Shown: positions 12,759 through 62,170 of the stretch, piece after piece
Layout: each line of letters begins with the position of its first letter
Numbering within the stretch: the stretch's first letter is position 1
Assembly (NCBI GenBank): GCA_035221665.1
Contig: CM069140.1
Location: forward strand, 54,126,001 to 54,190,000
Direction: 5' to 3'
DNA length: 64,000 nt
Source: Okamejei kenojei
Lineage: Eukaryota
Made by a program: the position numbers and the translations under genes
The notes under the pieces: generated by a model
What the model saw: the letters and a program-made list of their open reading frames with translations, nothing else
What the model was told of the DNA's origin: nothing
Database searches by the model: none

Positions 12759-14897
12759 TGACCAATAGGTGTTAGTTTAGAGTATTAGAGCAAGTGTCCT
12801 CTCCGCATGGTGAGGCAACTAACGTTTTACATGCATCTCAGTCAATCATAGGCCCAACCATTTATGTTAAGCAGATTATATATTTTTCCTTGAATTGCTT
12901 TTAGTTAGATCCCAGAGGTGACAATAGAAAGGATGCTATCTCTTTTAATGTGCTATCAAATGACTCAAAGTAATATTGCATAGACCTCTAAATCAATGTG
13001 ATAACTGACCTTTATAATGCAATTCTCAACTTTGTCTCCTAAATCTATTTTAAACACGCTGGAATTTTGATACATTTGTTAAAATGTTGCACACTCTGGA
13101 TGTGGATAATCTTGAGCCCCAATTTTTCTTTCCTTCTGCTAAATAGGAGTAATGTCACTTTGACAAGAGTGGTATTGGACAGCTGATGTGCTTTCAGGAT
13201 GAGATGCAATTTATTCTGTTGTGTGTTGTACAGAATCTGCCAAAACACACATTTGATTATTTTGCACAACATGCAAATAATTACGGTGTACTTTGCAACA
13301 GTTTGCACTTTGGAGAGATTTTTAAAAAGATAATGCCAGGTAATATAATGAATAACAAAATCTGTTAGCATGTTGTAATAGTACTCATGCAGAAAATTAA
13401 CTAGAACTGTGCGCAAGACATGAACTGCAATAAAGTGAAATAATTATTTCCTGTTTCTTCAACAGTAAGCATTCCATGTTGAAGGACAACACACTCCAAG
13501 GGACTGTGAAGGTAAGTGAGGCTGAACAAATGTTAAAATGCGAGTCATAGCAAAGATGAATGGAAGTGAGTGAAAGTAAATAAGAAGAAAAATGAAACAA
13601 AGAACAAGAATGAAGAAGAACTGAAACAAAAATAATGGAGAGAGAATAAATTTGCATGCAAGAAATAAAGCAAGGTGCAAAGCAGCTGTAAAACTAAGAA
13701 TTGTATGATATTTCAGATGAGGAAATGAAAGAAAGAAATCACAAGATATGTGAGTAGCAATCGCTCAGAAAAGGAGAGGACTAGAAAGAGATTGAGGAAA
13801 AGAGCCTTTTAACTGACATGAGAACAGTCCAGTCCCTGGAGTACTTCATTTCCAGTTAAGTTAGAATTAAGTCCTTGTTAAACAAGCACTCTTCAAGGAC
13901 TTTCAGCTGCCTTCAGAGTGGGATTAAGGATCAGAAAATAATCGCAGGCTGCCATCAATCCTGTGTAAGAATAAAGTGTTAAAATGCAGCACCATGAGGT
14001 GACCACTTTTGGCAGCGACTATAACCTCAATTGCAGAAATCTTTTCTTGAATTGGCTGGTGCTTTGAGAATATACATGTCAAGGATCATTAAAAGAAGAA
14101 TTAACAAAAACACTTCCTTTTTCATAAGTTTTGCCTCCTATCCTCAGCAACTGAGACATTTTCATGCTTGTAACACATGTACTATATTAAGTCTAAGTCG
14201 TGAAATTATATGATTTTCTTTTAATCGTTTATTGAAATAAGCAATAAAATTTGATGTATCTCGGAGTAAATAACCAATTGCTTTTTTTTTAAATTGACAG
14301 TGTCGAGAATATTTAACACAATTTTGTGGTTTAACATCAAAAATCTCAGAACTTACCAACATGATGGACTGGAACTGGTTAAACTTTATTCGAGTAATAT
14401 ATATTAAAGTCTTGTTTTCTCAAAAAACTTCTCTGCCTATTTCTCCCTTCACTTACTGCTCTGTGAATACCAATCCTTTAGAAGGTCAAATTCTGCAGGC
14501 AATACTCTGGGGTGAAAATGCAGTTGCTCACACAATATTCACATAGATGTTGATGCTGAGTGTCAGAGGATATGTTGATAACTGGACACATCACGTGACT
14601 TCAGCTTTGGAAGCTGGAGGATGATCATGAACGGAAACAGTGACCATAAGTGCAGGTGTGCTTGGGATCAATTGGAGGACTTCAGCTGCCATCTTCTGTA
14701 AGATCAACCAGCCAGACAACCCCTATTGCTGCAACCCTGGGCAGTTCTTCGAAGGGTATACTTTCATTCCAGATACAATTCAGCAAGATAATACTATTGA
14801 ATAAAACAAGGCTTCAAATGAAGCAAAAAATAACTCAAATTACTTCAGTGCACATGAAATCCATGCTCTGCCCAGAGCCCCAAAGCTATTTACTTTT

Positions 14898-16306: not shown

Positions 16307-18465
16307 CATTTTATTTATGGGCGCCTTTCAGAACACTGAAGGACACCTTACAGTTAAAACAAGCAAATGACAAATATATAAATAAAATGAAACAAAAACA
16401 ACATATCCATGAATTTGATAGAAAGTGGAGTTATGTGGGATAGGCCAGTCTGAATAGGTGAGTTTTGAGGGAGGTTTTAAAGGTGGGAAGAGACTTTATG
16501 GTACGGATGGATAGTGGGAGAGAGTTCCAGAGGCGAGGGGCAGAATGGCTGAAGGCTCTGAACCCCACCGTGGATAGGCGGGCAGATGGAGTGGAGAGCA
16601 GGGAGCAAGAAGAGGATCGGAGAGTTCGGGATGGAGTGTAAGGCTGGAGGAGTTCAGAGAGGTATGGAGGAGCAAGATTGTGGAGGGCTTTGAAAGTGAG
16701 GCGGAGAATCTTAAAATCAATGTGGTATTGGACAGGGAGCCGGTGCAGTTGTTTGAGGATGGGAGTGATGTGTTCGATGGATGGGGTTCTGGTGATAATG
16801 CGGGCAGCTGAGTTCTGGACCAATTGGAGTTTATCGATGGACTTGTGGGGTAAACCAGAGAGGAGAGAGTTACAATAATCAATACGGGAGGCGACGAGGG
16901 CGAGGATGAGAGTAGCAGTGCTGTTCGGTGTGAGTGATGGACGAAGACGGTGGATAGTGCGTAGGTGGAAGTAAGCAGACCGAGTGAGATTATTCATGTG
17001 TTTTTCAAAATAAAGTGTGCTATCAAGGATGACACCCAGACTCTTGACCTGAGGGGAAGGAGGGACAATGGAATAGTCAATGGTGAGTGAGAAATTGGGA
17101 TATTTAGATAGGGTGGATTTGGAGCCAACAAGGAGAATTTCAGTTTTGTTACTGTTGGTTTGAGGAAGTTGTGAGCAAACCAGGTTTTAATTTCCACTAA
17201 GCAGTCAGACAGGAAAGAGGGAGGATGCATGGAAGTGGGTTTGGTGGACAGGTAGAGCTGGGTGTCATCCGCGTAGCAGTGAAATTGAATGTTGTATTTC
17301 CTGAAAATAAAACCAAGGACACATTTATAATAAATACATTTTAAAACCGAGGGGCCCTGGGACTGAGCCATGGGGAACACCACTGGTGACTGGGGAGGGT
17401 AGTGATTGGACATTTTAAGTTGTACAAACTGAGTGCGGCTGGAGAGGTTTGATGTGAACCAGGTGAGTGATGTGTTGATGATACCAATGGAGGCTAGACG
17501 GTCGAGGAGGATGTTGTGAGAGATGGTGTCAAAGGCAGCAGTCAAATCAAGGAGGATGAGTATTGTGAGAAAACCGGAGAAGGCAGCCATCAGCAGGTCG
17601 TTGGTGACCTTGACTAATGCTGTTTCTGTGCTATGGAGAGGGCGAAAACCAGATTGAAATTGTTCATAGAGGTTATTGCTGATGAGATGATTGTGAACCT
17701 GTGCAGCAACTGTTTTTTCTAGTATTTTAGAGATAGATGGCAAATTGGAGATTGGTCGGAAATTATTTAGATTGCTGGGATTTGCACCGGGTTTCTTAAG
17801 TACTGGAGTTATTGCAGTGGTTTTGAGAGAGGAAGGAACATGAGCAGAAATAAAGGAGGAGTGGATGATGTTAGTTGTGAAAGAGGAGAGGGAAGGTAGA
17901 CGGGTTTTGACTAAGTGGGTGGTGATTGGGTCGAGTTGGCAGGTGGATGATTTCGATTTTCGGATGAAACCAGATATTTCAGTAACAGTTGGGAGTTGAA
18001 AACTAGATAATAAAGAAAAGGGGGGGACAGAAGAAGGTGGACGGAGTGCACTATTATCCGCATTAGATAAAGAGGGGAGCTGTTTGTGAATGTTTTCAAT
18101 TTTCGTTTTGAAAAAGGACATAAAACTATTACATTGAGAAGTTGAGTACAAGTGGGATGGGAGAGTATACGGTGGTCGTGAGATCATGTTAATTGTGGAA
18201 AACTGGGCTCGAGTGTTCCCTTCGCCAGATGAAATTAAATTAGCATAGTATATGGATTTACCTGTGGAGAGGACATCCTTATAGTGCAGTATGTGGTTGT
18301 CATACATGTCCTTGTGAACAACAAGTCCGTTTTTTTTGTAGAGACGTTCCGGGCGACGTCGTTTTATTTTTAGCTGGCGTAGAACAGGTGTGTACCGGGG
18401 CAGAGTGTGTAAAAGAAACAGTCTGGGTTTTCAAAGGAGCAAGAATGTCCAGAAGTCCATCATTG
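16261..18465 (-). mobile_element. L2-clade LINE, 5'-truncated RT pseudogene
   Basis: ORFs with [68 protein letters not shown]. Confidence 0.95.
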
Positions 18466-22024: not shown

Positions 22025-22846
22025 CAAGAGTTAAAGTTCAAGAGAGTTTATAGTCATCTGTCCCAGATAGGACAATGAAATTCTTGCTTTGCTTCAGCAC
22101 AACAGAATATTTTAGGCATAAATAAATACAGAACAGATCTGTGTGTTCATATACTATTGAGTATATATATATACACACATAAATAAGCATATAAAGTGCA
22201 ATAGGCTATTAAAGATTTTTGTTTGAGTTGAGTTTAATAGTCTGATGGCTGTGGGGAAGTAGCTATTCCTCAACCTGGATGTTGCAGATTTCAGGCTCCT
22301 GTACCTTCTACCTGAAGGCAGTGGAGAGATGAGTGTATGGCCAGGGTGGTGTGGGTCCTTGATGATGCTGCCAGCCTTTTTGAGGCAGCGACTGTGGTAG
22401 ATCCCCTCGATGGTAGGGAGGTCAGAGCCGATGATGGACTGGGCAGAGTTTACAACTTTTTGCAGTCTTTTCCACTCCTGTGCGCACAAGTTGTCGAACC
22501 AAGCCACGATGCAACTGGTCAGCATGCTCTCTACTGTGCACCTGTAGAAGTTTGAGAGAGTCCTCCTCGACATACCGACTCGCCGTAATCTTCTCAGGAA
22601 GTAGAGGCGCTGATGTGCTTTCTTTATAATTGCATCAGTGTTCTGGGACCAGGAGTGATCTTTGGAAATATGCATGCCCAGGAATTTGAAGCTCTTGACC
22701 CTTTCCACCATCGACCCGTTGATATAAACGGGACTGTGGGTCCCTATCCTACCCCTTCCAAAGTCCACAATTAGTTCCTTGGTTTTGCTGGTGTTGAGAG
22801 CCAGGTTATTGCGCTGGCACCATTTGGTCAGTCAGTCGATCTCACT
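22025..22846 (-). mobile_element. Rex1/Babar LINE 3' part
   Basis: ORF 22154-22768: [49 protein letters not shown]. Confidence 0.92.
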
Positions 22847-25110: not shown

Positions 25111-26254
25111 TATGTGTTAAATAGAACGAGAGAATCAGTTTTATTGGAGCTGAGTTTTTCTTTCATTTAATCTACAGACAACCCTGTAGACACAGAAAAA
25201 GAAAGGGAGAGAGAAAGCCGTCTATAGATGAGGGGATAGCACTTAATAGTCTCAAATGGCTGCCTTAAAGGAAATTCAGTTAACAAAATGTCAGAGGGAA
25301 ATGCACTTCCATTCACTTTATGACACATGATCCTGCACGCATAGGGAAACAATATTTACAATATGCTAGCCATTTCAATTCATTTTAGAGATGTACGACG
25401 GAGATTAATTTGCGGGATAGAAAATGGCAAGAGAAAGATGTCTAATGCTTCTCTCTAAAAAGGAGCTGTCCTCAAGTCAGAGGTGTTGGAGCCACCAGGC
25501 TTGCAAAGATTAATTGCCTTACTGCCATTAAACCTAAAATTAGCTGGTGGGGGAACATCATGTAAAAGGTTGAAAAGCCATGAATTATTATTTTTAAGCT
25601 CCTACCTTTAGAAGATACTTTTCCCTCTTGCAAATGTCACTTGTGCTGAGCTAGCTGGTTGTGTAAAAGTTATGTTTTTTAATCATGCTGCACAAATTAT
25701 TTTTTTGATTAATTTTTCCTCGCTTCTATCGTCTCTCAGCCTCTCAGCACAACTGCTGACCTGCACAGCACCCTTTCTTCAAGCACGAAAGGAAGAGAAG
25801 GAGTGAGAGAACAGGTGATGACTCACTGAGGGTCCCTGATTTTCCGCTTCTGTGTAGATCCCAGTGTGACAGAAATATGTCAAAGATATTGAGTGTTCTG
25901 GTGATACTGCAAAAGACTTTGTCCTTCGCTGTCTCATGGTGCTGTATCATTACAAGTATCTTCCATCAAAATGCTTTTAACATTCACTTTCCTTTCAAAT
26001 GGTGTAAGCACTATAATTGAGGAATCTACTGTTGAATTTTACAGGGAGAAATTGCGCTCTGAAGTGTCTGTTTTTATGTAATCCATCCATCCTTTCTGCC
26101 CTAAAATAACAGATGTGGTCCCTCAGCACATTTGTGCGGTGATTGGCAACTGATGCCATTTTGAACAGGGTGCCCACAGGGATAGTGAACATCCATTGCT
26201 AATGTGCGTAGTGGACAGACACTGGCACCACCATCGTGGAACACAGGGCACCAG

Positions 26255-28040
26255 GTAATAGTAGCATAGACTACTTTCTAAATGAGGAGAGGATTCAGAA
26301 ATTTGAGGTGCAAAGGGAGTTGGGGGTGCTGGTGCAGGATACCCACAAGATTAATTTGCAGGTTGAGTCAGCGGGAAAGAAGGCAAATGCAATGCTAGCA
26401 TTCATTTCAACGGGACTGGAATATAAAAGCAGGAATGTAATGCTGAGGCTGTATAAGGTGCTGGTGCGACCATATTTGGAATATTTTGTGACGGTTTTGG
26501 ACCCTATATCTGAGGAAGGATATGCTGCCATTGGAGAGGATCCAGTGGAGGTCTACGAGAATGAAACTTGGGCTGGTTGAGTTAACATATAAGGAGCATT
26601 TGATGGCTTGGCTGGTGGGAGGCTGTAGATGGTCGACAAGGAGTTTAGAGACAAGTGTAAGTTCTGCCTCATATCCTAAAATCTTATCACCAGTCAGAGA
26701 AATGAGTATAGAAGTTGGGACAGTTACAGTTGCACAAGATATTGGTGAGGCTACATTTGGAGTATTGTGTTCAGCCTGGTCGCATTGCCTATAAACTGGA
26801 ACAAGTGCAGAGAAGTTTTACAAGGATGTTGCCAGGAATCTACCTGGAGTAGATTGCATGCAGTTTTGGTCCCCTAATTTGAGGAAGGACATTCTTGCTC
26901 TTGAGGGAGTGCAGCATAGGCTTACAAGGTTGATTCCCGGGATGGCGGGACGGTCATATGCTGAGAGAATGGAGTGGCTGGGCTTGTACACTCTGGAGTT
27001 TAGAAGGATAAGAGGGGATCTTATTGAAACATATAAGATTGTTAAGGGTTTGGACACGCTAGAGGCAGGAAACATGTTCCTGATGTCGGAGGAATCCAGA
27101 ACCAGGGGCCTCAGTTTAAGAATAAGGGGTAAGCCATTTAGAACGGAGACGAGGAAACACTTTTTCCTACAGAGAGTTGTGAGTCTGTGGAATTCTCTGC
27201 CTCAGAGGGTGGTGGAAGCCGGTTATTTGGATGCTTTCAAGAGAGAGCTAGATAGGGCTCTTAAAGATAGCGGAGTCAGGGGATATGGGGAGAAAGCAGG
27301 AACGGGGTACTGATTGGGGATGATCAGCCATGATCACATTGAAAGGCAGTGCTGGCTCAATGGGCCAAATGGCCTACTCCTGGCTATTGTCTATTGTCTA
27401 TTATCTGTTGAATCGAGGGCCTGAGCTACAGGGAAAGATTGGGCAGGCTTGCTGCACAGGAGGTTGAGGGAGGATCTTTTGCAGGTGTATACAATGGTGA
27501 GTCTCTGGAACTCTCTGCCACAGAGGGTAGTTGAGGCCAGTTCATTGGCTACATTTAAGAGTGAGTTGGATGTGGCCCTTGTGGCTAAGGGGATCAGAGG
27601 GTATGGAGAGAAGGCAGGTACGGGATACTGAGTTGGATGATCAGCCATGATCATATTGAATGGCGGTGCAGGCTCGAAGGGCTGAATGGCCTACTCCTGC
27701 ACCTAATTTCTATGTTTCGCAGGTGTATACAATTATGAGGGCAATAGATAGGGTGAACGCCCAGAGCCTTTTTCCCCAAGGTAGGAGAATCGCGAATTAG
27801 AGGGCATAGGTTTAAGATAAAAGGAGAAAGATTTAGTAGCAACCTGAGGGGGAACCTTTGAACTCAGAGGTTGGTGGGTAAATGGAATGAGCTGCCAGAG
27901 GAGGCAGTTGAGACAGGTACAATAATAACATTTAAAAGACATTTGGACATGTACATGGATAGGAAATGTTTAGAGGAATATGGGCCAAACACGGGTAAAT
28001 TACAATGGGCATGGATGAGTTGTGTCAAAGAACCTGTTTC
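26255..28040 (+). mobile_element. Nested CR1 cluster: old copies plus inserts at ~26841-27405 and 27496-27718
   Basis: Several QFWSP/WNSLP/TRG peptides. Host CR1 resumes after each insert. A 15-bp direct repeat flanks 27496-27718. Confidence 0.9.
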
Positions 28041-36228: not shown

Positions 36229-37202
36229 AGTTTGAAACCACATTTGAGATATTTCAAATTTAGCTTGTTATGAATCCCTGCTTTATATTGTTCCACCTTT
36301 GTGGGGAAGTCTTTCAGTTGCATGAACTCTCGAATTCTACCCCTCTTTCCTCGCTCCTAAAATCTGAACCAAGCTTTTGATTATCTTTTCCACTAACTTC
36401 AGTTGAAACCTGGTATCAAATTACAAAGTTATTTTATTTTATAATTCTTCTATGAAGTGCCTTTTTAAATGGGTAGAGCATTGCTGCATAAATTAAAGCT
36501 GTTGCTAAACTCCAAGTTATGTCAAGGAATGTACATTACTTTTCATGGGATTCATTTTACCTTCTGATTCCTAAGGTTTGATTCATAATTTTATTATTGC
36601 AAACAGACACAAAGTTGTAACAATTCTTGGCTTGCTGTGTAAATTCACATAGGCAAGCATTTTTTTTAATAACTTCAAACCTGTGGAAAGAATTTTAAGT
36701 CTTGTTATCAGCTGTTGTCTCCGAATAGGTAGGTGGTCTTTGTGGTTTTTAAATCTTGCTTGTAAATTGGTAAAAGTACATGGGAAGAAAGGAAAATTAG
36801 TTGAAGACAGCAGAACGTGTATCACACTTGATAATTTGAACCTCTTTGTGATATTTTTGATGCATTTTCCTTTCTTTGAGAAATACTGTGAGTTTGATGT
36901 ATTTTCCTTTCTTTGAGAAATACTTTCTTTAAGAAAGTTTTATCATAAGGATGGATACAGAGAACTGTGGGCATTGCCTTCTAACGAAGAGAAGCAGATG
37001 CCTGCACAATACTGTGAGTGAATGAGAAGAGATGAGAAGACATTGCCAGAATTACTTGTACAGGGGTGTTGTGTGTTCCTATCGACATGAATTGTAGTCC
37101 TATTTTGACAATGTTAATATTTTCTAATATCAACATTTTCTTTTCATTTGCAGTATTGTGAATGGTGTAGCTTTAACAAAATGTTATTTTCTTTTTCCAC
37201 AG

Positions 37203-37298
37203 TCTGTTTTGCTATCAGCACCAATTAAAAGGGAAGGGGAATCACCAACAGCATCACCTCTCTCTGCAGATGACACTCATCATTCAGACAGATACCAG
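37203..37298 (+). CDS. RNF220: RNF220 internal coding exon (96 nt, phase 0/0)
   Basis: Acceptor ttttctttttccacAG| and donor CAG|gtggga. Encodes SVLLSAPIKREGESPTASPLSADDTHHSDRYQ, matching the remembered vertebrate RNF220 segment SLLLSASIKREGESPTASPHSSATDDLHHSDRYQ. Confidence 0.92.
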
Positions 37299-39914: not shown

Positions 39915-40175
39915 TGTAGAACACAGAACATATAACAGTAAAGCATAGGAACAGTCCACAATGTCTTCGCCAAACATGATGGCAAGTTAAACTAATCGCC
40001 TGTGCCTGCTCGTAATCTATATCCCTCCCTTCCCTGCATATCCATGTACTTATCTAAAGACCTCTGAAATATCACTATTGTATCTGCCTCCACTATCACC
40101 CCTAGCAGTGCATTCCAGGCACCCATCACTCTCTGTGTAAAAAAAAATGCCTTGCACATCTCCTTTAAACTTTCC
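39915..40175 (-). mobile_element. Old CR1 3' end
   Basis: Reverse complement of the family at 11500-11865. Confidence 0.75.
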
Positions 40176-40622: not shown

Positions 40623-40927
40623 AGGCAGCAGAGTGGTGCAGGAGTAGAAATGCTGCCTCACAGCGCCAGAGACCCGGATTTGACCCTGGCTACGGGTGCT
40701 CTCCATGCAAAGGTTGCAATTTCTCCCAGCTACCACGTGGGGTTTCTCTGGGTGCTCGGATTTCCTCCCACATTCCAAAGACGTGCCAAAATTGTAGGTT
40801 AATTGGACTTTGTAAATTGTCTGTAGCGTGTAGAGTGGGATAACATGGAATTAGTCCAAGGGGGATCAACGGTCAGCGTGGACTCGTTGGAACAAAGGGC
40901 CTTTTTCCACGCTATACAGTATCTCTT
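40623..40927 (+). mobile_element. HE1-type SINE
   Basis: Head, cagcgccagagacccgga, V-domain and tail. Confidence 0.82.
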
Positions 40928-41060
40928 TTAAAAAATCATGCATACAGACAAGCAAACCAATGCCTACTGCTCAGGTAATTCTCAATAATTCATGTCACAA
41001 TTGACAGAGGTGTAATTGCTCATGCATTTAAGCTCAAGAAAAGTATTTCTTATTGCAGCT

Positions 41061-41150
41061 TTATATAACCATATAACCATATAACAATTACAGCACGGAA
41101 ACAGGCCCTCTCGGCCCTTCCAGTCCGTGCCGACCATTTGTTTTCCCCTT
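41061..41150 (-). mobile_element. Extremely 5'-truncated CR1 (~90 bp)
   Basis: Reverse complement of 5145-5222 with no mismatch that I can see. Confidence 0.9.
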
Positions 41151-42214: not shown

Positions 42215-42520
42215 ATTAAGAAGCGCATGGAGTGTTGCAAAGAGCAGTAACAGCGTGGGCTGCAGCACTGGCTGCGAGAAGTCCAGGCACCGTTCTTGGA
42301 TGCTGAGCTGCTGCCACCTATCGGGCGCTTGGCGCAGGCGCGCTTTGTGATGTGCACTTTCACCTTTCGCCGGCGGTCACGTGGCCGCGCTTTCTCCGAG
42401 GCCTGGTGGAAGCTGAGCAAGATGCAGCCTCTTGGTTACAATCCAATGACATCCTCCCAGTTGCTGTGAACTGCACGGATCGGATTATAAAGGTGCAAAG
42501 CTTCCAGGTGCTACATTCAT
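42215..42520 (+). promoter_or_regulatory. Small CpG-rich island, candidate internal promoter
   Basis: Local GC/CpG enrichment in non-TE DNA (tcgggcgcttggcgcaggcgcgc, tcgccggcggtcacgtggccgcgc). E-box CACGTG at 42378-42383. CTCF-like CCGATAGGTGGCAG on the - strand at 42311-42324. Confidence 0.5.
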
Positions 42521-42560
42521 GCCAAGTAATATTGACAGGTTATCCCATTTTAATCCTGCC

Positions 42561-42611
42561 ATGGACCCAGCAGGAGTGGAGGATCCAGAACACACCAATG
42601 GCAAGGAGGAA
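42561..42611 (+). CDS. RNF220: Putative alternative first coding exon of a short RNF220 isoform (MDPAGVEDPEHTNGKEE)
   Basis: Kozak gccATGg, 17 open codons, phase-0 donor GAA|gtaggt, 156-nt intron to the phase-0 acceptor at 42768, preceded by a CpG-rich island. Confidence 0.55.
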
Positions 42612-42767
42612 GTAGGTTTTGTTTACATCCTGTGTAGTTGGGGCAATGGGAGAATCCACTGCAATCCATCTGCTTCAAGCATATATTTCACTTATATTCG
42701 GGCAGTATTTGACAGTTTAAGTGCTTCTTATTTATTTTTCACCTTTCTTTTCTGTTTTTCTTTATAG

Positions 42768-42810
42768 ACATTTTTGCGAGTAAGGTCCAACAGGCAAGCA
42801 AGGCTGAATG
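42768..42810 (+). CDS. RNF220: RNF220 internal coding exon (43 nt, phase 0/1)
   Basis: Long polypyrimidine tract ending tttatAG| and donor ATG|gtaagg. Encodes TFLRVRSNRQARLN plus one G, continuing the previous exon in frame (cf. RNF220 ...RYQTFLRVRANRQTRLNA...). Confidence 0.92.
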
Positions 42811-48347: not shown

Positions 48348-49378
48348 TCAATTCAATTCAAATTTAATGTCATTGCACAGATACAAGTATGGGTACAACG
48401 AAATGCAGTTTAGTGTCAGTACGTAGTGATAGCAATGTTTAGATAAATACAGATGTGGGAATCTATCGGCGGGACTCCGAGTTCAGCAGTGCGATGGTGT
48501 TATTGTAGAAGCTACTCCTCATCCTGCTGGTGCGGGACCTGAGGCTCCTGTACCGCCTCCCCGATGGTAGGAGGGCAAACAGTCCATGGTTAGGGTGGGA
48601 GGGGTCCTTGATGATCTTCCCAGCCCGTCTCAGACACCGTTTTCGGTGGAGGGCATCCAAAGCAGGGAGCGGGGCACCGATGATGTGCTGGGCGGTTTTC
48701 ACCACCCGTTGTAGTGCCTTCCTGTCTGCTACGGTGCAACTGCTGTACCATACCGTAAAGCAGGTGGTCAGGATGCTTTCGATGGGTACAGCGGTAGAAG
48801 TTGGTCAGGATCTGGGGGGACAGGTGGGCTTTTTTGAGCCTCCTCAGGAAATAAAGGCGCTGCTGCGCCTTTTTGACCAGCTTGGAGGTGTTGAGGGACC
48901 AGGACAGATCCTCCGAGATGTGTACCCGAGGCAATTTGTAGTTGGAGACCGCTCCACCTCAGTCCCGTTTATATGGATGGGGGTGTGTCTGCCCCCTCTG
49001 TTCTTCCTGAAGTCGACAATGATCTCCTTCGTCTTTTGGGAGTTAAGGACGAGGCTGTTATTGGCACACCAGGTTGTCAGGTGCTGGACCTCCTCCCTGT
49101 AGGCTGATTCGTCGTTATCGCTGATCAGTCCTACCACCGTGGTGTCGTCGGCAAATTTTATGATGGCGTTGGAGCTAAACTTAGGGATGCAGTCATGGGT
49201 GAAGAGAGAGTAGAGGAGAGGACTGAGCACACAGCCTTGTGGCACGCCAGTGTTCAGTGTTATAGTGGAGGAGGTGAGGTTGTTGATCCTAACAGACTGG
49301 GGTCTGTTAGTGAGGAAATCCAGTGTCCAATTGCAGAGGGAAGTGGAGATGCCAAGACCGCTGAGTTTGGTGATCAAG
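48348..49378 (-). mobile_element. Rex1/Babar LINE, 5'-truncated RT, inserted in a Penelope pLTR (48289-48347 and ~49401-49466)
   Basis: [53 protein letters not shown]. Short TGAAT-repeat tail. Confidence 0.93.
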
Positions 49379-49514
49379 CTAGCGGGTTACTCCAGCACTT
49401 TGCTGAGTTACTCCAGCACTTTGTGTCCTTTTGTGGATTAACCATCATCTGTAGTTCTTTGTTTCAAATACATGCAATGATGATACCATACTTGGTTATA
49501 ACAGACATAATTTC

Positions 49515-50971: not shown

Positions 50972-51596
50972 AAGAAGGAACTGCAGATGCTGGAAAATCG
51001 AGGGTACACAAAATGCTGGAGAAACTCAGCGGGTGCAGCAGCATCTATGGAGCGAGGGAGATAGGCAACGTTTTGGGCCAAAACTCTTCTTCAGACTGAC
51101 GGGGGGGGGGTGGGGGGAGGCCGGGGGAAGCGGAGGGAAGAAAGGAAAAAGGAGGAGGAGCCCGAGGGCTGAGGGAGAGGTAGGAGGAGGAGACAGCAAG
51201 GGTCAACAGAATTGAGAGAATTTGTTCATGCCAGGAGGATGCAGACTCCCCAAGCGGAATATGAGGTGCTGTTCCTCCAATTTGCGGTGTTGCTCATTCT
51301 GGCCGTGGAGGAGTCCCTGGACGGAGAGGTCGGATACGGAATGGGAGAGGGAGTTGAGTGCTGAGCCACCGGGAGGTCGGGTTGGTTATTGCGGAGGTGT
51401 TCGGCGAAACGATCGCCAAGCCTCTGCTTGGTGGTCTCGCTGATATAGATCAGCTGACATCTAGAGCAGCGGATGCAATAGATGAGGTTGGAGGAGGTGC
51501 AGGTGAACCTCTGTCTGACCTGGAACGACTGCTTGGGTCCTTGAATGGAGTGGAGGAGGAGGTAAAGAGACAAGTGTAGCATCTCTTGCGGTTGCA
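50972..51596 (-). mobile_element. Penelope-like element 3' part: GIY-YIG endonuclease remnant, pLTR and hammerhead motif
   Basis: ORF 51226-51597: FTCTSSNLIYCIRCSRCQLIYISET...RFAEHLR...PVAQH, a typical PLE GIY-YIG. caaataataa occurs at both flanks. Confidence 0.92.
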
Positions 51597-55042: not shown

Positions 55043-56357
55043 AGAGATGAAAACAGGCTCTTCAGTCTGTCCAATAACAACCACCCATTTACACTGGTAC
55101 CGTAACTTAATTTTTTATTCTCTGCATGTTTTCGTCAACTCCTCTGATTTCACCACTTACTAACAAACTAGAACAATTTACACTGGTCAATTAACCCTCT
55201 CAGGCTTGACATGTCGGAGGAAGCCAAAGCAACTGGAGGACACTCCATACGGGTGGCACGGTGGAGCAGCGGTAGAGTTGCTGCCTTATGGGTCTGTCCC
55301 ACTTAGGTGACTGCAGGAGACTGTGCAGTCGCCACATGTTTGCGAGTGGTTGCCGGGGAGTCGCCTTCATGGTCGTGAGAAGTTCCTGCATTCTGGGAAC
55401 TAGTCGCGGCCTCATTATAGTCACCGCAAATTTTTCAAGATGTCAAAAAATTAGCGGCGACTAGAATGAAGCCGCCATGGAGAGTAGCGAGTATTCTCGT
55501 GCCGCAGGTGGGTCGCCAGGAGGTCCTAATGGGTTGCCAGGAGGTCGAAGGTTCTCGTAGCCAGTGCTGACCGGTGAATTTCATTGGGGAAAAAAAACCG
55601 TAAGCACTAGTTTTCAGAACCAAGGATAACCGACCAGTAATGTTAAATGTCCGCTGAGCTTCACTGTCATGTATCTCTGCCTTCTTAAACGTTGTCTCCC
55701 CCCCCCCCCTTAAAGGACTTACCATACATTGTACTTTTGCCGTCTTAATTACAGTGCCAACCTTCCTGTTCATCGCGGTGTGTGTGTTTGTATCGCATTG
55801 GCTTTGCATTGTGTGAATTTCACTCAGACAGTGCTCCCCCTGCTTGCATGTCTCCCATCTTACATAACAGGCTGGTGAAGGAAGCGATGTGTGTGTGTTC
55901 CACTCTGACAGTCGCCATTCCAGTTGCCAATTTTTCAGGCGACTGCCGGCATCTTGGCAGTCGCCTGAAAAATCACCCAAGTGGGACAGGCCCATTATAG
56001 CGTCGGGGAGACTGGTTCGATCCTGACTACGGGTGCTATCTGTATGTTATCTCCGTGACTGGGTGGGTTTTCTCCTGGTGCTGGTCTCCACACTCCGAAG
56101 ACCTACAGGTTTGTAGGTTAATTGTCTTTGGTAAAAATTGTAAATTGTCCCGCGTGTAGGATAGTGCCAGTGTATGGGAACCGCTGCTCGGCACGGACTT
56201 GGTGGCCCGAAGGGCCTGTTTCCGTGCAGTATCTCTACACTAAAAAAACTAAAAGATGTTCACATAGAGAACAAGCAAACTCCACTTCCTGCGGTCAGAA
56301 TTGAATCTGGGCCTCTGGCACTGTGAGGAAAATGGTTGATTATTTGCCATTGTGCTG
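55043..56357. mobile_element. Minus-strand HE1 SINE split by a plus-strand HE1 SINE (55251-56253)
   Basis: The outer SINE resumes at ~56254 (cacatagagaacaagcaaactccac). The inner SINE has a head and a ctaaa tail. Confidence 0.8.
55289..55994. mobile_element. PIF/Harbinger-type non-autonomous element (MITE, 706 bp)
   Basis: TIRs tgggtctgtcccacttaggtga / tcacccaagtgggacaggccca. TTA duplicated at 55286-55288 and 55995-55997. It cleanly interrupts the SINE head. Confidence 0.88.
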
Positions 56358-58405: not shown

Positions 58406-60922
58406 ATTTTGAGATGAATAGAATCAGTGGTCTTTAGATGTGAGAATCCTATTATTGAAGCATAGCTGACTTTGTGTTGGCTTATTTTTGCATGGTGTAT
58501 GGCTGAATGGAATACTGGGTTGGTTTGGTTCCAATGCTGTTAGTTTGCTGCCCTTCATTGTATAGTAATGGAGATGCCCTGGGCACAAGCCTAGTTGTTC
58601 ACCAGAGAAAAAGAAAGAAACGCTCGGGCAGATGACTCTTCGTTGGTTCGTGTCACAGAAATATTTGCAACAGATCTGCATCAGAGGTGGAGTTTAAATG
58701 TCTGGATATCTCGTCACTATCTAGATGCATACAATGTGTCGACTGTTAAATCTTCAATGCATCTCAGCATTTTATAACCACTTTTCACAATTTGGCTCAC
58801 CCCAATTACATCTTGTGACTCAAGGGCTACAAGGTTGATGAGGGCAACCTTCTTACCATCTACGATATGTCAATTGACACGATTCTGTCTGCATCTTGTC
58901 ATTCCTTTGGGTTCATATCAATAACACATTTCCTAATTAACCACAAAGGGTACATCAGTTTGTTTGTGCAGATATCCCCTGAGACAAATGGATATTCTTA
59001 ATGTTTTGCAAATGGGGAACTGTTTTGCAGTATTTCTGGGTAACCATAGGGATGGTCAGTAAAATGGTAGGGGTTCTGGCAAGGGCATGAAACTTGTGGG
59101 GTTGGCATACAGCTGAGGGTGAAGACATTTTGTTACATTAGCTGTGTTGCAGTAGACTGTTTGAAAAACCTGATATGCAGAAAACATTTGCTATTATGTT
59201 AATTCATTTATATTTTGCTGCAGCCTTTGCCTTCATTAGCACAAAGTAGCAGAGGAATTGGTTTCATTAAATTGTAGTATACCTGGGAAATAATGCTTTC
59301 TTGTACGGAATGGTGGGTACTCTTATTGCTTTGAGGTATATGTTATAGTTTCACTTTGAATTGATCTGTTTCATTCTGGGTGTGAGAATTTATTTGGATA
59401 TATTTATAGTAAAAAGGTTCCTGATGATTAATGCATCACTGCCTATTGATTTTTTTAAAGTAATTTGTTCCATTGGTGAACAGTGATGAAAATATCAGTG
59501 AACTAAGTTTGCAAGACTAGTACTGTCAGTTAGGAAATGCCAAAATAATGTACTTCAACCATACTTATGAAGTGATATTTAGGTCAGATTCTGGTCATTA
59601 CTTTGGCTGATGATTAATGCATTCTTTAAAATAAGCTCTTAATTTGCTCTGTTTTATAGTTACAGGGTATGGTCCTGTAATGGCCACATTTTCTTTATTC
59701 GGGATCCTGGAAACTGTTAGCTTATTATCTTAATCCCTCTTCCCAAGAACACATGCAACAATATTCTATTGGCATTTTCAGGCAGGGTCTTCAGCAAAAT
59801 AATACCCACCTGAAAAATACAAATTCTTTCGACTGAAAATAAAAAAAAATAAGGTGTTGATTTTAGACCAGCAAGTAAATACTGGGCTATACTTGGCAGA
59901 ATAGTTTTTAAATGTGGAGTGGGAACTCTTTACAACTGTTCCACCTTTCAAGACTACTGTAGAACATTAAGAGGGTCCCAGTTTGCCATTTTATCTGTGA
60001 GATGGTAGCTGCAATCTTTTCAGTTTAATGTCCTCGATTATGTACACATCCATAAATTTATGCTTCAACTGGAAGGAAAAAGTGTAACTACTAAGCCAAA
60101 TCCACAAGTTTATGGGAAATTCTCCTTTGTACTAATACCTATTTGCTAATCAAAGTTTCTAAAAATTGTCTTTCATTACATTTAGTGGGGCCACATCGGT
60201 GTGCAAATTCGGTTGCTGCATCTTCCAGCATCTCACATATGACTACACTGCAGAAGCACTAGAATGGCGTTTCTGCAACATTGCCTATATTCATCGTGAG
60301 GAAAAGCAAATCACTGTCAGTGTTCTCTCCCAGGCTCCACTCCAATAGAGTGTTTGTTGGGGGATAAAGTGAAGCATTGCAGTGGAAAAACACTGAAAAG
60401 AGCTTTGGGGAATGACACACCACTGATTCTGTACTGAAATTGGGTCCTTCATGTACCTCACTGGTTAAGATCACATCTTGCTGTTCACCATGAATGACTC
60501 CAGGCAACCACATTCCCAAAATGTAACTTTTGTACACTGCAAATGCTGTCATCGTGGAGCTGTAGAAGCAAGTGGTAAGGAGAAAACCATTCATTGTGTA
60601 TGTGCTAACTGAAGAGGAGCTTCAAACTCGTAAGAACTATCTACCTTGGTTCCATTTTTGTAGTTTATATGCAAGCCTTCTACAACTTTGCACAAAATTT
60701 GCATTTTAGTATATTTTAAATATGACAAATGTTCCTGTGGAATATTAATTACAGAATCTGAATTACATATTTGAATGAGATATTGTTGTATATTAAAAGT
60801 AAACAGAAAGCCACAGTGCAGATATGGTGAGAGATCTGAGAGATGATGTGAAGATTCCAAGTTGATCTTCCTTTTCTGGAGTTTAGCCTGTGTGTGTTTA
60901 AACTGAGGTTTTTGTTAACGCT

Positions 60923-62170
60923 TTTAGTAGCGTGGATAAGGGAGAACCAGCGGATGTGGTATATCTGGACTTCCAGAAGGCTTTCGACAAGGTCCCACAT
61001 AAGAGATTAGTATACAAACTTAAAGCATACGGTATTAGGGGTTCAGTATTGATGTGGATAGAGAACTGGCTGGCAAACAGGAAGCAAAGAGTAGGAGTAA
61101 ACGGGTCCTTTTCACAATGGCAGGCAGTAACTAGTGGGGTACCGCAGGGCTCAGTGCTGGGACCCCAGCTATTTACAATATATATTAATGATCTGGATGA
61201 GGGAATTGAAGGCAATATCTCCAAGTTTGCGGATGACACTAAGCTGGGGGGCAGTGTTCGCTGTGAGGAGGATGCTAGGAGACTGCAGGGTGACTTGGAT
61301 AGGCTGGGTGAGTGGGCAAATGTTTGGCAGATGCAGTATAATGTGGATAAATGTGAGGTTATCCACTTTGGTGGGCAAAAACAGGAAAGCGGACTATTAT
61401 TTTAAATGGTGGCCGATTGGGAAAAGGGGAGATTGCAGCGAGACCTGGGTGTCATGGTACACCAGTCATTGAAAGTAGGCATGCAGGTGCAGCAGGCAGT
61501 GAAAAAAGCGAATGGTATGTTAGCTTTCATAGCAAAAGGATTTGAGTACAGGAGCAGGGAGGTTCTACTTCAGTTGTACAGGGTCTTGGTGAGACCACAC
61601 CTGGAGTATTGCGTGCAGTTTTGGTCTCCAAATCTGAGGAAGGACATTATTGCCATAGAGGGAGTGCAGAGAAGGTTCACCAGACTGATTCCTGGGATGT
61701 CAGGACTGTCTTATGAAGAAAGACTGGATAGACTCGGTTTATACTCTCTGGAATTTAGGAGATTAAGAGGGGATCTTATAGAAACTTACAAAATTCTTAA
61801 GGGGTTGGACAGGCTAGATGCAGGAAGATTGTTCCCGATGTTGGGGAAGTCCAGGACAAGGGGTCACAGCTTAAGGATAAGGGGGAAATCCTTTAAGACC
61901 GAGATGTGAAAGACTTTCTTCACACAGAGAGTGGTGAGTCTCTGGAACTCTCTGCCACAGAGGGTAGTTGAGGCCAGTTCATTGGCTATATTTAAGAGTG
62001 AGTTGGATGTGGCCCTTGTGGCTAAGGGGATCAGAGGGTATGGAGAGAAGGCAGGTACGGGATACTGAGTTGGATGATCAGCCATGATCATATTGAATGG
62101 CGGTGCAGGCTCGAAGGGCTGAATGGCCTCCTCCTGCACCTAATTTCTATGTTTCTATGTTTCTATGTTT
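60923..62170 (+). mobile_element. Young CR1 LINE, 5'-truncated RT pseudogene
   Basis: [41 protein letters not shown]. Indels near 61375-61400, stop at 61907, (tttctatg)n tail. Confidence 0.96.

Follow-up and report, generated by a model that had tools for sequence, protein, structure and literature searches.

In this study, we found a spliced exon of RNF220a in the skate Okamejei kenojei, which we read with high confidence as a likely alternative first exon with a CpG-island promoter, and very probably as the orthologue of mammalian exon 5a, the exon that starts deltaN-RNF220. The exon lies within a window of 64,000 nt (G000:C10:54,126,001-54,190,000 of a 2.76-Gb genome), the whole stretch of DNA analysed here. 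An earlier note on this DNA had pointed to such an exon; its observation is confirmed, and its interpretation is supported once the start codon is corrected. Splicing from 42611 to 42768 and onward was observed, and annotated proteins of other rays and sharks proved identical or nearly so. The comparison with exon 5a was made on proteins. The isoform itself is already known from published work on mammals, and RefSeq has models of it for sharks and rays. What is added here is a polarity of the two forms reversed from that argued in PMC12296455, a Met38 start limited to bony vertebrates in our sample, and a candidate SIN3-binding helix.

The RNF220 exons in the window match skate RNF220a at or near 100%. 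The long isoform contributes a 46-nt exon (13466-13511, plus strand) and a 96-nt exon with a phase-0 donor (37203-37298, plus strand), the latter being the last exon private to this isoform, and both isoforms share the 43-nt TFLRVR exon (42768-42810, plus strand). RNF220 has been tied to neural patterning, muscle differentiation, and a human leukodystrophy. The first coding exon of its long form lies 324 kb upstream of the candidate exon and its last exon 105 kb downstream, and the pre-mRNA measures ~105 kb for the short isoform versus at least 429 kb for the long isoform. The exon that follows the 43-nt exon spans G000:C10:54199370 to 54199494 and can end at either of two donors separated by 78 nt, which code for a second zinc-finger-like motif; one hagfish RNF220 model also lacks this motif.

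All sequence elements named by the earlier note, i.e., gccATGG at 42561, 17 codons, the GAA/gtaggt donor at 42612, the 156-nt intron, and the 43-nt exon, are exact. The junction it predicted between 42611 and 42768 was found, in frame to the 43-nt exon, in five of six RNA-like contig runs (X1, X3, X5, X6, and X7, from four organisms and four studies), and it removes a phase-0 intron of 156 nt with GT-AG ends (42612-42767, plus strand). In X5 and X7, the letters past 42810 are those of the next RNF220 exon. These runs belong to the eight examined out of 24 listed; they come from related organisms, their RNA status was assigned by guess (X1 is flagged 'probably DNA'), none of those listed being recorded as RNA, and they give neither tissue nor expression level. 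The sixth RNA-like run, X13, contributes a single contig (182 nt, depth 2.7), which continues unspliced for 29 nt past the donor at 42612. In the DNA-like run X18, one contig spans the 156-nt intron and the joint is absent. The raw RNA run X24, read to ~6%, is uninformative, as it covers no RNF220 exon, not even those common to both forms. In run X1, another contig covers the long-form exon (37201-37296), and we infer that the long and short forms both occur in this run; contig depth, which cannot rank isoforms, was 33.5 for the short exon and 10.3 for the long-form exon.

The five spliced contigs, one of which is 3021 nt in length, begin at their own terminal base (42378, 42405, 42378, 42393, and 42383), with nothing upstream. 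Thus the 5' end of the 234-nt exon (42378-42611, plus strand) is approximate, within 42378-42405, as contig ends cannot prove a transcription start and the same stop in two studies is a weak hint. Since contigs cannot show starts and these end at the edge of the GC-rich patch, the stretch might instead be a cassette exon within the transcript, or else form the 3' end of a first exon that is longer and non-coding, with the contig starts reflecting a drop-off of coverage in GC-rich sequence. We consider this highly improbable, because none of the five spliced contigs carries an upstream joint or extra letters and because two studies stop at the same base. Furthermore, an in-frame stop is present upstream at 42447, and only four AG sites could act as in-frame acceptors of an internal exon, none of them with a pyrimidine tract; together with the lack of upstream joints, this argues against an internal cassette exon. 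A somewhat longer 5' end would leave the protein unchanged. The earlier note had also proposed that retention of the 156-nt intron would give a short peptide. Its frame is indeed open (51 codons) and ends on the acceptor TAG, and the low-depth contig of X13 is unspliced, but a peptide of 68 or 82 aa is little supported: 6-7% of shuffles or of stretches of the window are open to the same extent, the final TAG is necessarily in frame in any phase-0 intron whose length is 3n, and a stop upstream of many junctions is expected to lead to nonsense-mediated decay. That the retained intron makes a functional peptide therefore seems scarcely credible. Taken as an alternative first exon inside RNF220a, as 42378-42611 likely is, the 234 nt contain one of the 39 listed differences in a DNA-like run of a related organism (P ~0.01 if differences were uniform; at least 39 differences, with ~8 more unlisted).

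A small CpG island, single-copy in the genome, is located at 42215-42420 and is likely the proximal promoter of the short isoform. It contains 16 CpG in 206 nt, with a GC content of 60% and an observed/expected ratio of 0.87, as compared to 0.22-0.30 in the flanks. It was described previously as the clearest non-TE CpG-rich patch in the window, and this holds, as it is the top 200-nt CpG peak and the second and third peaks are high-copy repeats with thousands of candidate copies (two of 11 other peaks checked). The E-box reported in this area is present (42376-42384, plus strand, with the CACGTG core at 42378-42383), at the likely transcription start; it is one of 13 CACGTG in the window, and 7% of patch-like simulated sequences contain one. 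Spliced contigs of two studies begin at 42378, the first base of its core, which is only a weak hint. The CTCF-like site claimed for the patch is also there (42311-42324, minus strand), with one mismatch to the consensus. A match of this quality, however, was reached by 49 of 100 window shuffles and by 1.6% of patch-like sequences; hence the site is weak at best and is not distinguishable from chance at the level of the window. A TATA-like run near 42487 was rejected, as it does not fit TATAWAWR and lies downstream of the contig starts.

The earlier note placed the start of translation at ATG 42561-42563 (plus strand), which has a strong context and would give a product of 311 aa with a 17-codon leader. 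However, the annotated and best-conserved start is the upstream in-frame ATG at 42519-42521 (plus strand), which that note had missed; despite its weak context, it is the start of the annotated 325-aa form with a 31-aa leader. Further upstream lies an out-of-frame ORF of 15 codons (42422-42469, plus strand), with a second ATG at 42446, which ends 50 nt before 42519. Met is found at the position of 42519 in all 11 cartilaginous-fish leaders and at that of 42561 in 10 of them, the chimaera having Leu. In addition, a GTG is located 12 codons before the junction (42576-42578, plus strand), at a position that codes for Met in sharks, sawfish, chimaera, gar, many teleosts, and frogs.

RefSeq and UniRef list the short isoform, starting at ATG 42519 and 325 aa in length, for 11 named cartilaginous fishes: Cetorhinus, Carcharodon, Hemitrygon, Hypanus, Mobula, Chiloscyllium, Mustelus, Pristis, Scyliorhinus, Rhincodon, and Callorhinchus. 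These entries, mostly automatic models in which the first ATG is picked by rule, include XP_059840122.1 (cluster member P0016, Hypanus/Hemitrygon), XP_041063991.1 (P0004, Carcharodon), and the Callorhinchus UniRef entry A0A4W3HZW3, which share the exon and junction of the skate but, in contrast to the earlier note, do not start at 42561. A search for the leader in relatives had been suggested, and besides these 11 database proteins, one transcriptome protein, seen on eight contigs, carries it. When 15 proteins were compared, 11 had the leader, which agrees with that of the window at 18 to 31 of its 31 residues (31/31 in P0016 and P0017), three were of the long type at the junction, and one lacked the junction. 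No named skate record with the leader was present among the cluster members listed.

In a wider set, the junction motif was found in 235 of 405 proteins, 98 of which have a short leader. Among the 60 distinct short leaders, 8 to 31 residues in length, the final residue is Glu in 50, Gly stands at -4 in 40, and Met at -12 in 28, while ~6 are unrelated models. This Met serves as the start in frogs, gar, and many teleosts, and it is also present in sharks, sawfish, and chimaera, whereas O. kenojei, stingrays, and manta rays have GTG/Val. Zebrafish rnf220a (NP_001070038.1, 307 aa) has a 12-aa leader with the same four-residue end pattern, joined to the same exon, but starts at Met -12, where the skate has Val. 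The zebrafish third-exon mutant, described in PMC7288745 as truncated at 37 aa, is consistent with the same exon order.

The short product retains the basic NLS-like stretch, the second zinc-finger-like motif, and the RING. Missing from it are the 300 residues at the N-terminus of the long form, with the helix motif and the first zinc-finger-like motif. As anticipated by the earlier note, the RING is kept: in the 325-aa skate-type protein P0027, Pfam PF13923 is found at 272-311, together with PF15926 positions 77-248, the C-terminal part of the RNF220 domain, and all of its exons map downstream in the genome analysed here. By the Pfam match, the RING is intact, and the short form would be a ubiquitin ligase. 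The new acidic N-terminus, by contrast, does not stand as claimed, since the leader was already known and its net charge ranges from -5 in rays to +4 in mammals (+3 to +4 in therian mammals). Given this range, acidity is not a conserved function of the leader. Its main role is probably to supply a start codon, as conservation across jawed vertebrates is limited to its last four residues.

The mammalian short form has been published as human RNF220 isoform 4 and mouse isoform 3, or deltaN-RNF220, starting in exon 5a (Choi et al. 2025, PMC12296455). The earlier note had left it as a condition that mammals use a start at the same position, and this turns out to be the case, at least at the level of the protein: in the mammalian 308-aa proteins, a leader of 18 aa precedes the same junction and Met38 is present, as given for isoform 4 in PMC12296455. 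A human record of 271 aa corresponds to residues 38-308 of the 308-aa protein. After the junction, 246 of ~290 residues match between the mammalian 308-aa and the skate-type proteins. Like the human and mouse isoforms, the skate form has a likely internal start, a short phase-0 leader joined to the same exon, a retained RING, and two in-frame start codons. The 78-nt splice switch in the next exon also appears to be common to skate and mammals, as the skate has the alternative donor and the 78 nt equal the 146/224-bp difference in PMC12296455. Unlike the skate leader, which is acidic and 31 or 17 aa long, the mammalian one is basic, Arg/Gly-rich, and 18 aa long, only the last four residues being common. 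The second start also differs, as Met38 of mammals lies inside the NLS, whereas both ATGs of rays and sharks lie upstream of it. The position of Met38 is occupied by Asn in the skate and, over 78 sequences, in hagfish and each cartilaginous fish examined, so that the 4b form could not arise in that way in cartilaginous fishes; isoform 4b, which starts at Met38 and is partly cytoplasmic, thus looks specific to bony vertebrates in our sample, a feature separate from the promoter switch.

Very probably, the skate exon gives the same short form as the mouse and human exon 5a, considering that the last four residues and the junction are common over 60 leaders, with fish and frog intermediates, when compared as protein. 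The internal starts of cartilaginous fishes, ray-finned fishes, and tetrapods could nevertheless have arisen independently within the same intron, each with a real first exon. The wide variation of the leaders in length (8-31 residues) and net charge (-5 to +4) would fit such a history, and the DNA-level comparison covers close relatives only. Yet the leaders from shark to mammal end in a common G-[KR]-[RE]-E and share phase 0, Met is found exactly at -12 in sharks, chimaera, gar, teleosts, and frogs, and the shark and zebrafish leaders have an Asn-Gly-Lys run in common, which makes independent origin improbable in our view. A less remote alternative concerns the start codon, namely that ATG 42519 is bypassed and only ATG 42561 is used, with a single 311-aa product. 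The stronger context at 42561 would favor this, as would the short distance between the uORF end and 42519, which could promote re-initiation further down. Against it, all 11 leaders retain ATG 42519 together with the 14-codon extension, which is free of indels, even in the chimaera with Leu at the second Met, and the frame shifts of one shark model lie only upstream of 42519. We therefore regard use of 42561 alone as possible but unlikely.

In the mechanism we propose, a small and presumably unmethylated CpG-island promoter would start transcription near the E-box at 42378, within 42378-42405, and the 234-nt exon is spliced to the shared 43-nt exon and then to the next exon, as observed in the contigs. 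Scanning ribosomes would pass the short uORF and start at 42519 to make the 325-aa protein, while leaky scanning past this codon would lead to the 311-aa protein from 42561, a start that also lies upstream of the NLS. Both ligases would keep the NLS-like stretch, the RING, and, optionally, the second finger, but not the N-terminal 300 residues. In mouse, the short form is broadly expressed and predominates outside the brain, and the long form is mostly neural. By analogy, the skate short form is likely the broadly expressed one and the long form mostly neural, and the shorter transcription unit along with the separate promoter may allow this broad expression.

As for the age of the two forms, PMC12296455 argues that the short form is the original RNF220 because zebrafish and fly have no annotated long forms; for zebrafish, the short form has been stated in print to be the only one. 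However, long proteins that combine the N-terminal motif with the first zinc-finger-like motif are present in hagfish, amphioxus, hemichordate, the brachiopod Lingula, damselfly, and bumblebee, and one long protein clusters with the coral Montipora. This survey outside jawed vertebrates covered the best 150 of 934 representatives, from which 10 were named, two of the 10 without a clear motif. A long protein of the teleost type exists as well, along with teleost models that include the upstream exons, and a conserved N-terminus of Tey orthologues is remarked on in a Drosophila paper. No deltaN-type leader was found among the same best 150 of 934 non-jawed-vertebrate representatives (10 named). 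A 307-aa Priapulus protein considered as a candidate was rejected, as it keeps long-form residues before the junction. Contrary to PMC12296455, the occurrence of long forms in coral, brachiopod, amphioxus, and hagfish indicates that the long form is ancestral and the internal start derived. The internal start is attested in all jawed-vertebrate groups sampled, and the same-junction starts from shark to mammal support the earlier suggestion that the switch predates the split of cartilaginous and bony fishes. The two-start design would date to the common ancestor of jawed vertebrates. No paper on the short exon in cartilaginous fishes was found among the top results of our literature searches, some of them loose, which is weak evidence of absence.

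The N-terminal helix motif of the long form (residues ~12-36; exon at G000:C10:53844589) is nearly invariant from coral to mammals, lies outside Pfam PF15926, and contains an LxxL core; it presumably resembles the REST helix. SIN3-interaction (PAH1-binding) helices are short helices that require such a core (PMC6168491). RNF220 was found as a SIN3B binder and ubiquitinates the PAH1 region of SIN3B, according to a review (PMC5902990). In structure prediction, the complex of chimaera SIN3B PAH1 and residues 8-45 of skate RNF220 scored 0.48, versus 0.04 for the best control, above a mark reached by 51 of 78 solved complexes and two of 108 mismatches; this pass may reflect memory, as like SIN3 complexes are already solved, and scores up to 0.60 include only five of the 78 solved complexes and all four passing mismatches, with peptides being outside the calibration. 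The runs agreed in at least 81% of contacts, and the pLDDT of the partner was at least 56. That the helix dropped by deltaN may bind SIN3B PAH1 is thus a weak lead from modelling. Among the top results of partly loose searches, which are weak evidence of absence, we found no paper mapping a SIN3-binding motif in RNF220, and the available portions of PMC7956749 and PMC13068551 give no motif sequence. It is tempting to speculate, though we hold the idea as tentative and rather doubtful, that the internal promoter of jawed vertebrates turns an ancestral SIN3-recruiting ligase into a non-docking form by dropping this helix as the SIN3B (PAH1) binding site. If so, each tissue's ratio of long to short form would decide between degradation and tethering of the SIN3-HDAC corepressor by RNF220, and the exon-2 knockout in mice would be a specific loss of the SIN3 arm. 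The candidate helix is a concrete and testable difference between the RNF220 isoforms.

Several other features of the locus and its relatives were observed. Within the 156-nt intron, an ATG opens a frame of 11 codons (42646-42678) that matches a stingray RefSeq isoform (X9, P0025) spliced to the 43-nt exon; the donor here would be of the GC type, and its G is altered in a related DNA-like run. In Hypanus sabinus, a protein of 323 aa (P0019) on a contig other than that of the 325-aa gene is a near-identical short form with the full 31-aa leader, and its locus may be an assembly duplicate or have arisen by retrocopying of the short mRNA; the O. kenojei genome yielded no second copy of this kind. 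A diverged RNF220 paralogue at G000:C36:10755882-10795249 (minus strand) has the same exon layout, with a 43-nt exon and an exon for the N-terminal motif. In the final 1.3 kb of its intron before the 43-nt exon, a region that looks repeat-filled, no ATG-to-donor candidate was found with the donor patterns tried. The RNF220 introns in the window contain broken LINE-type reverse-transcriptase fragments, detected by ORF translation, at 16431-18430, 22154-22831, 26212-27313, 48463-49386, and 60902-61909. High-copy repeats, SINE-like and others, are located at 39930-40175, 40640-41150, 51200-51550, and 55150-55750, with more than 4000 candidate copies in the genome for 51200-51550 and more than 6000 for 55150-55750.
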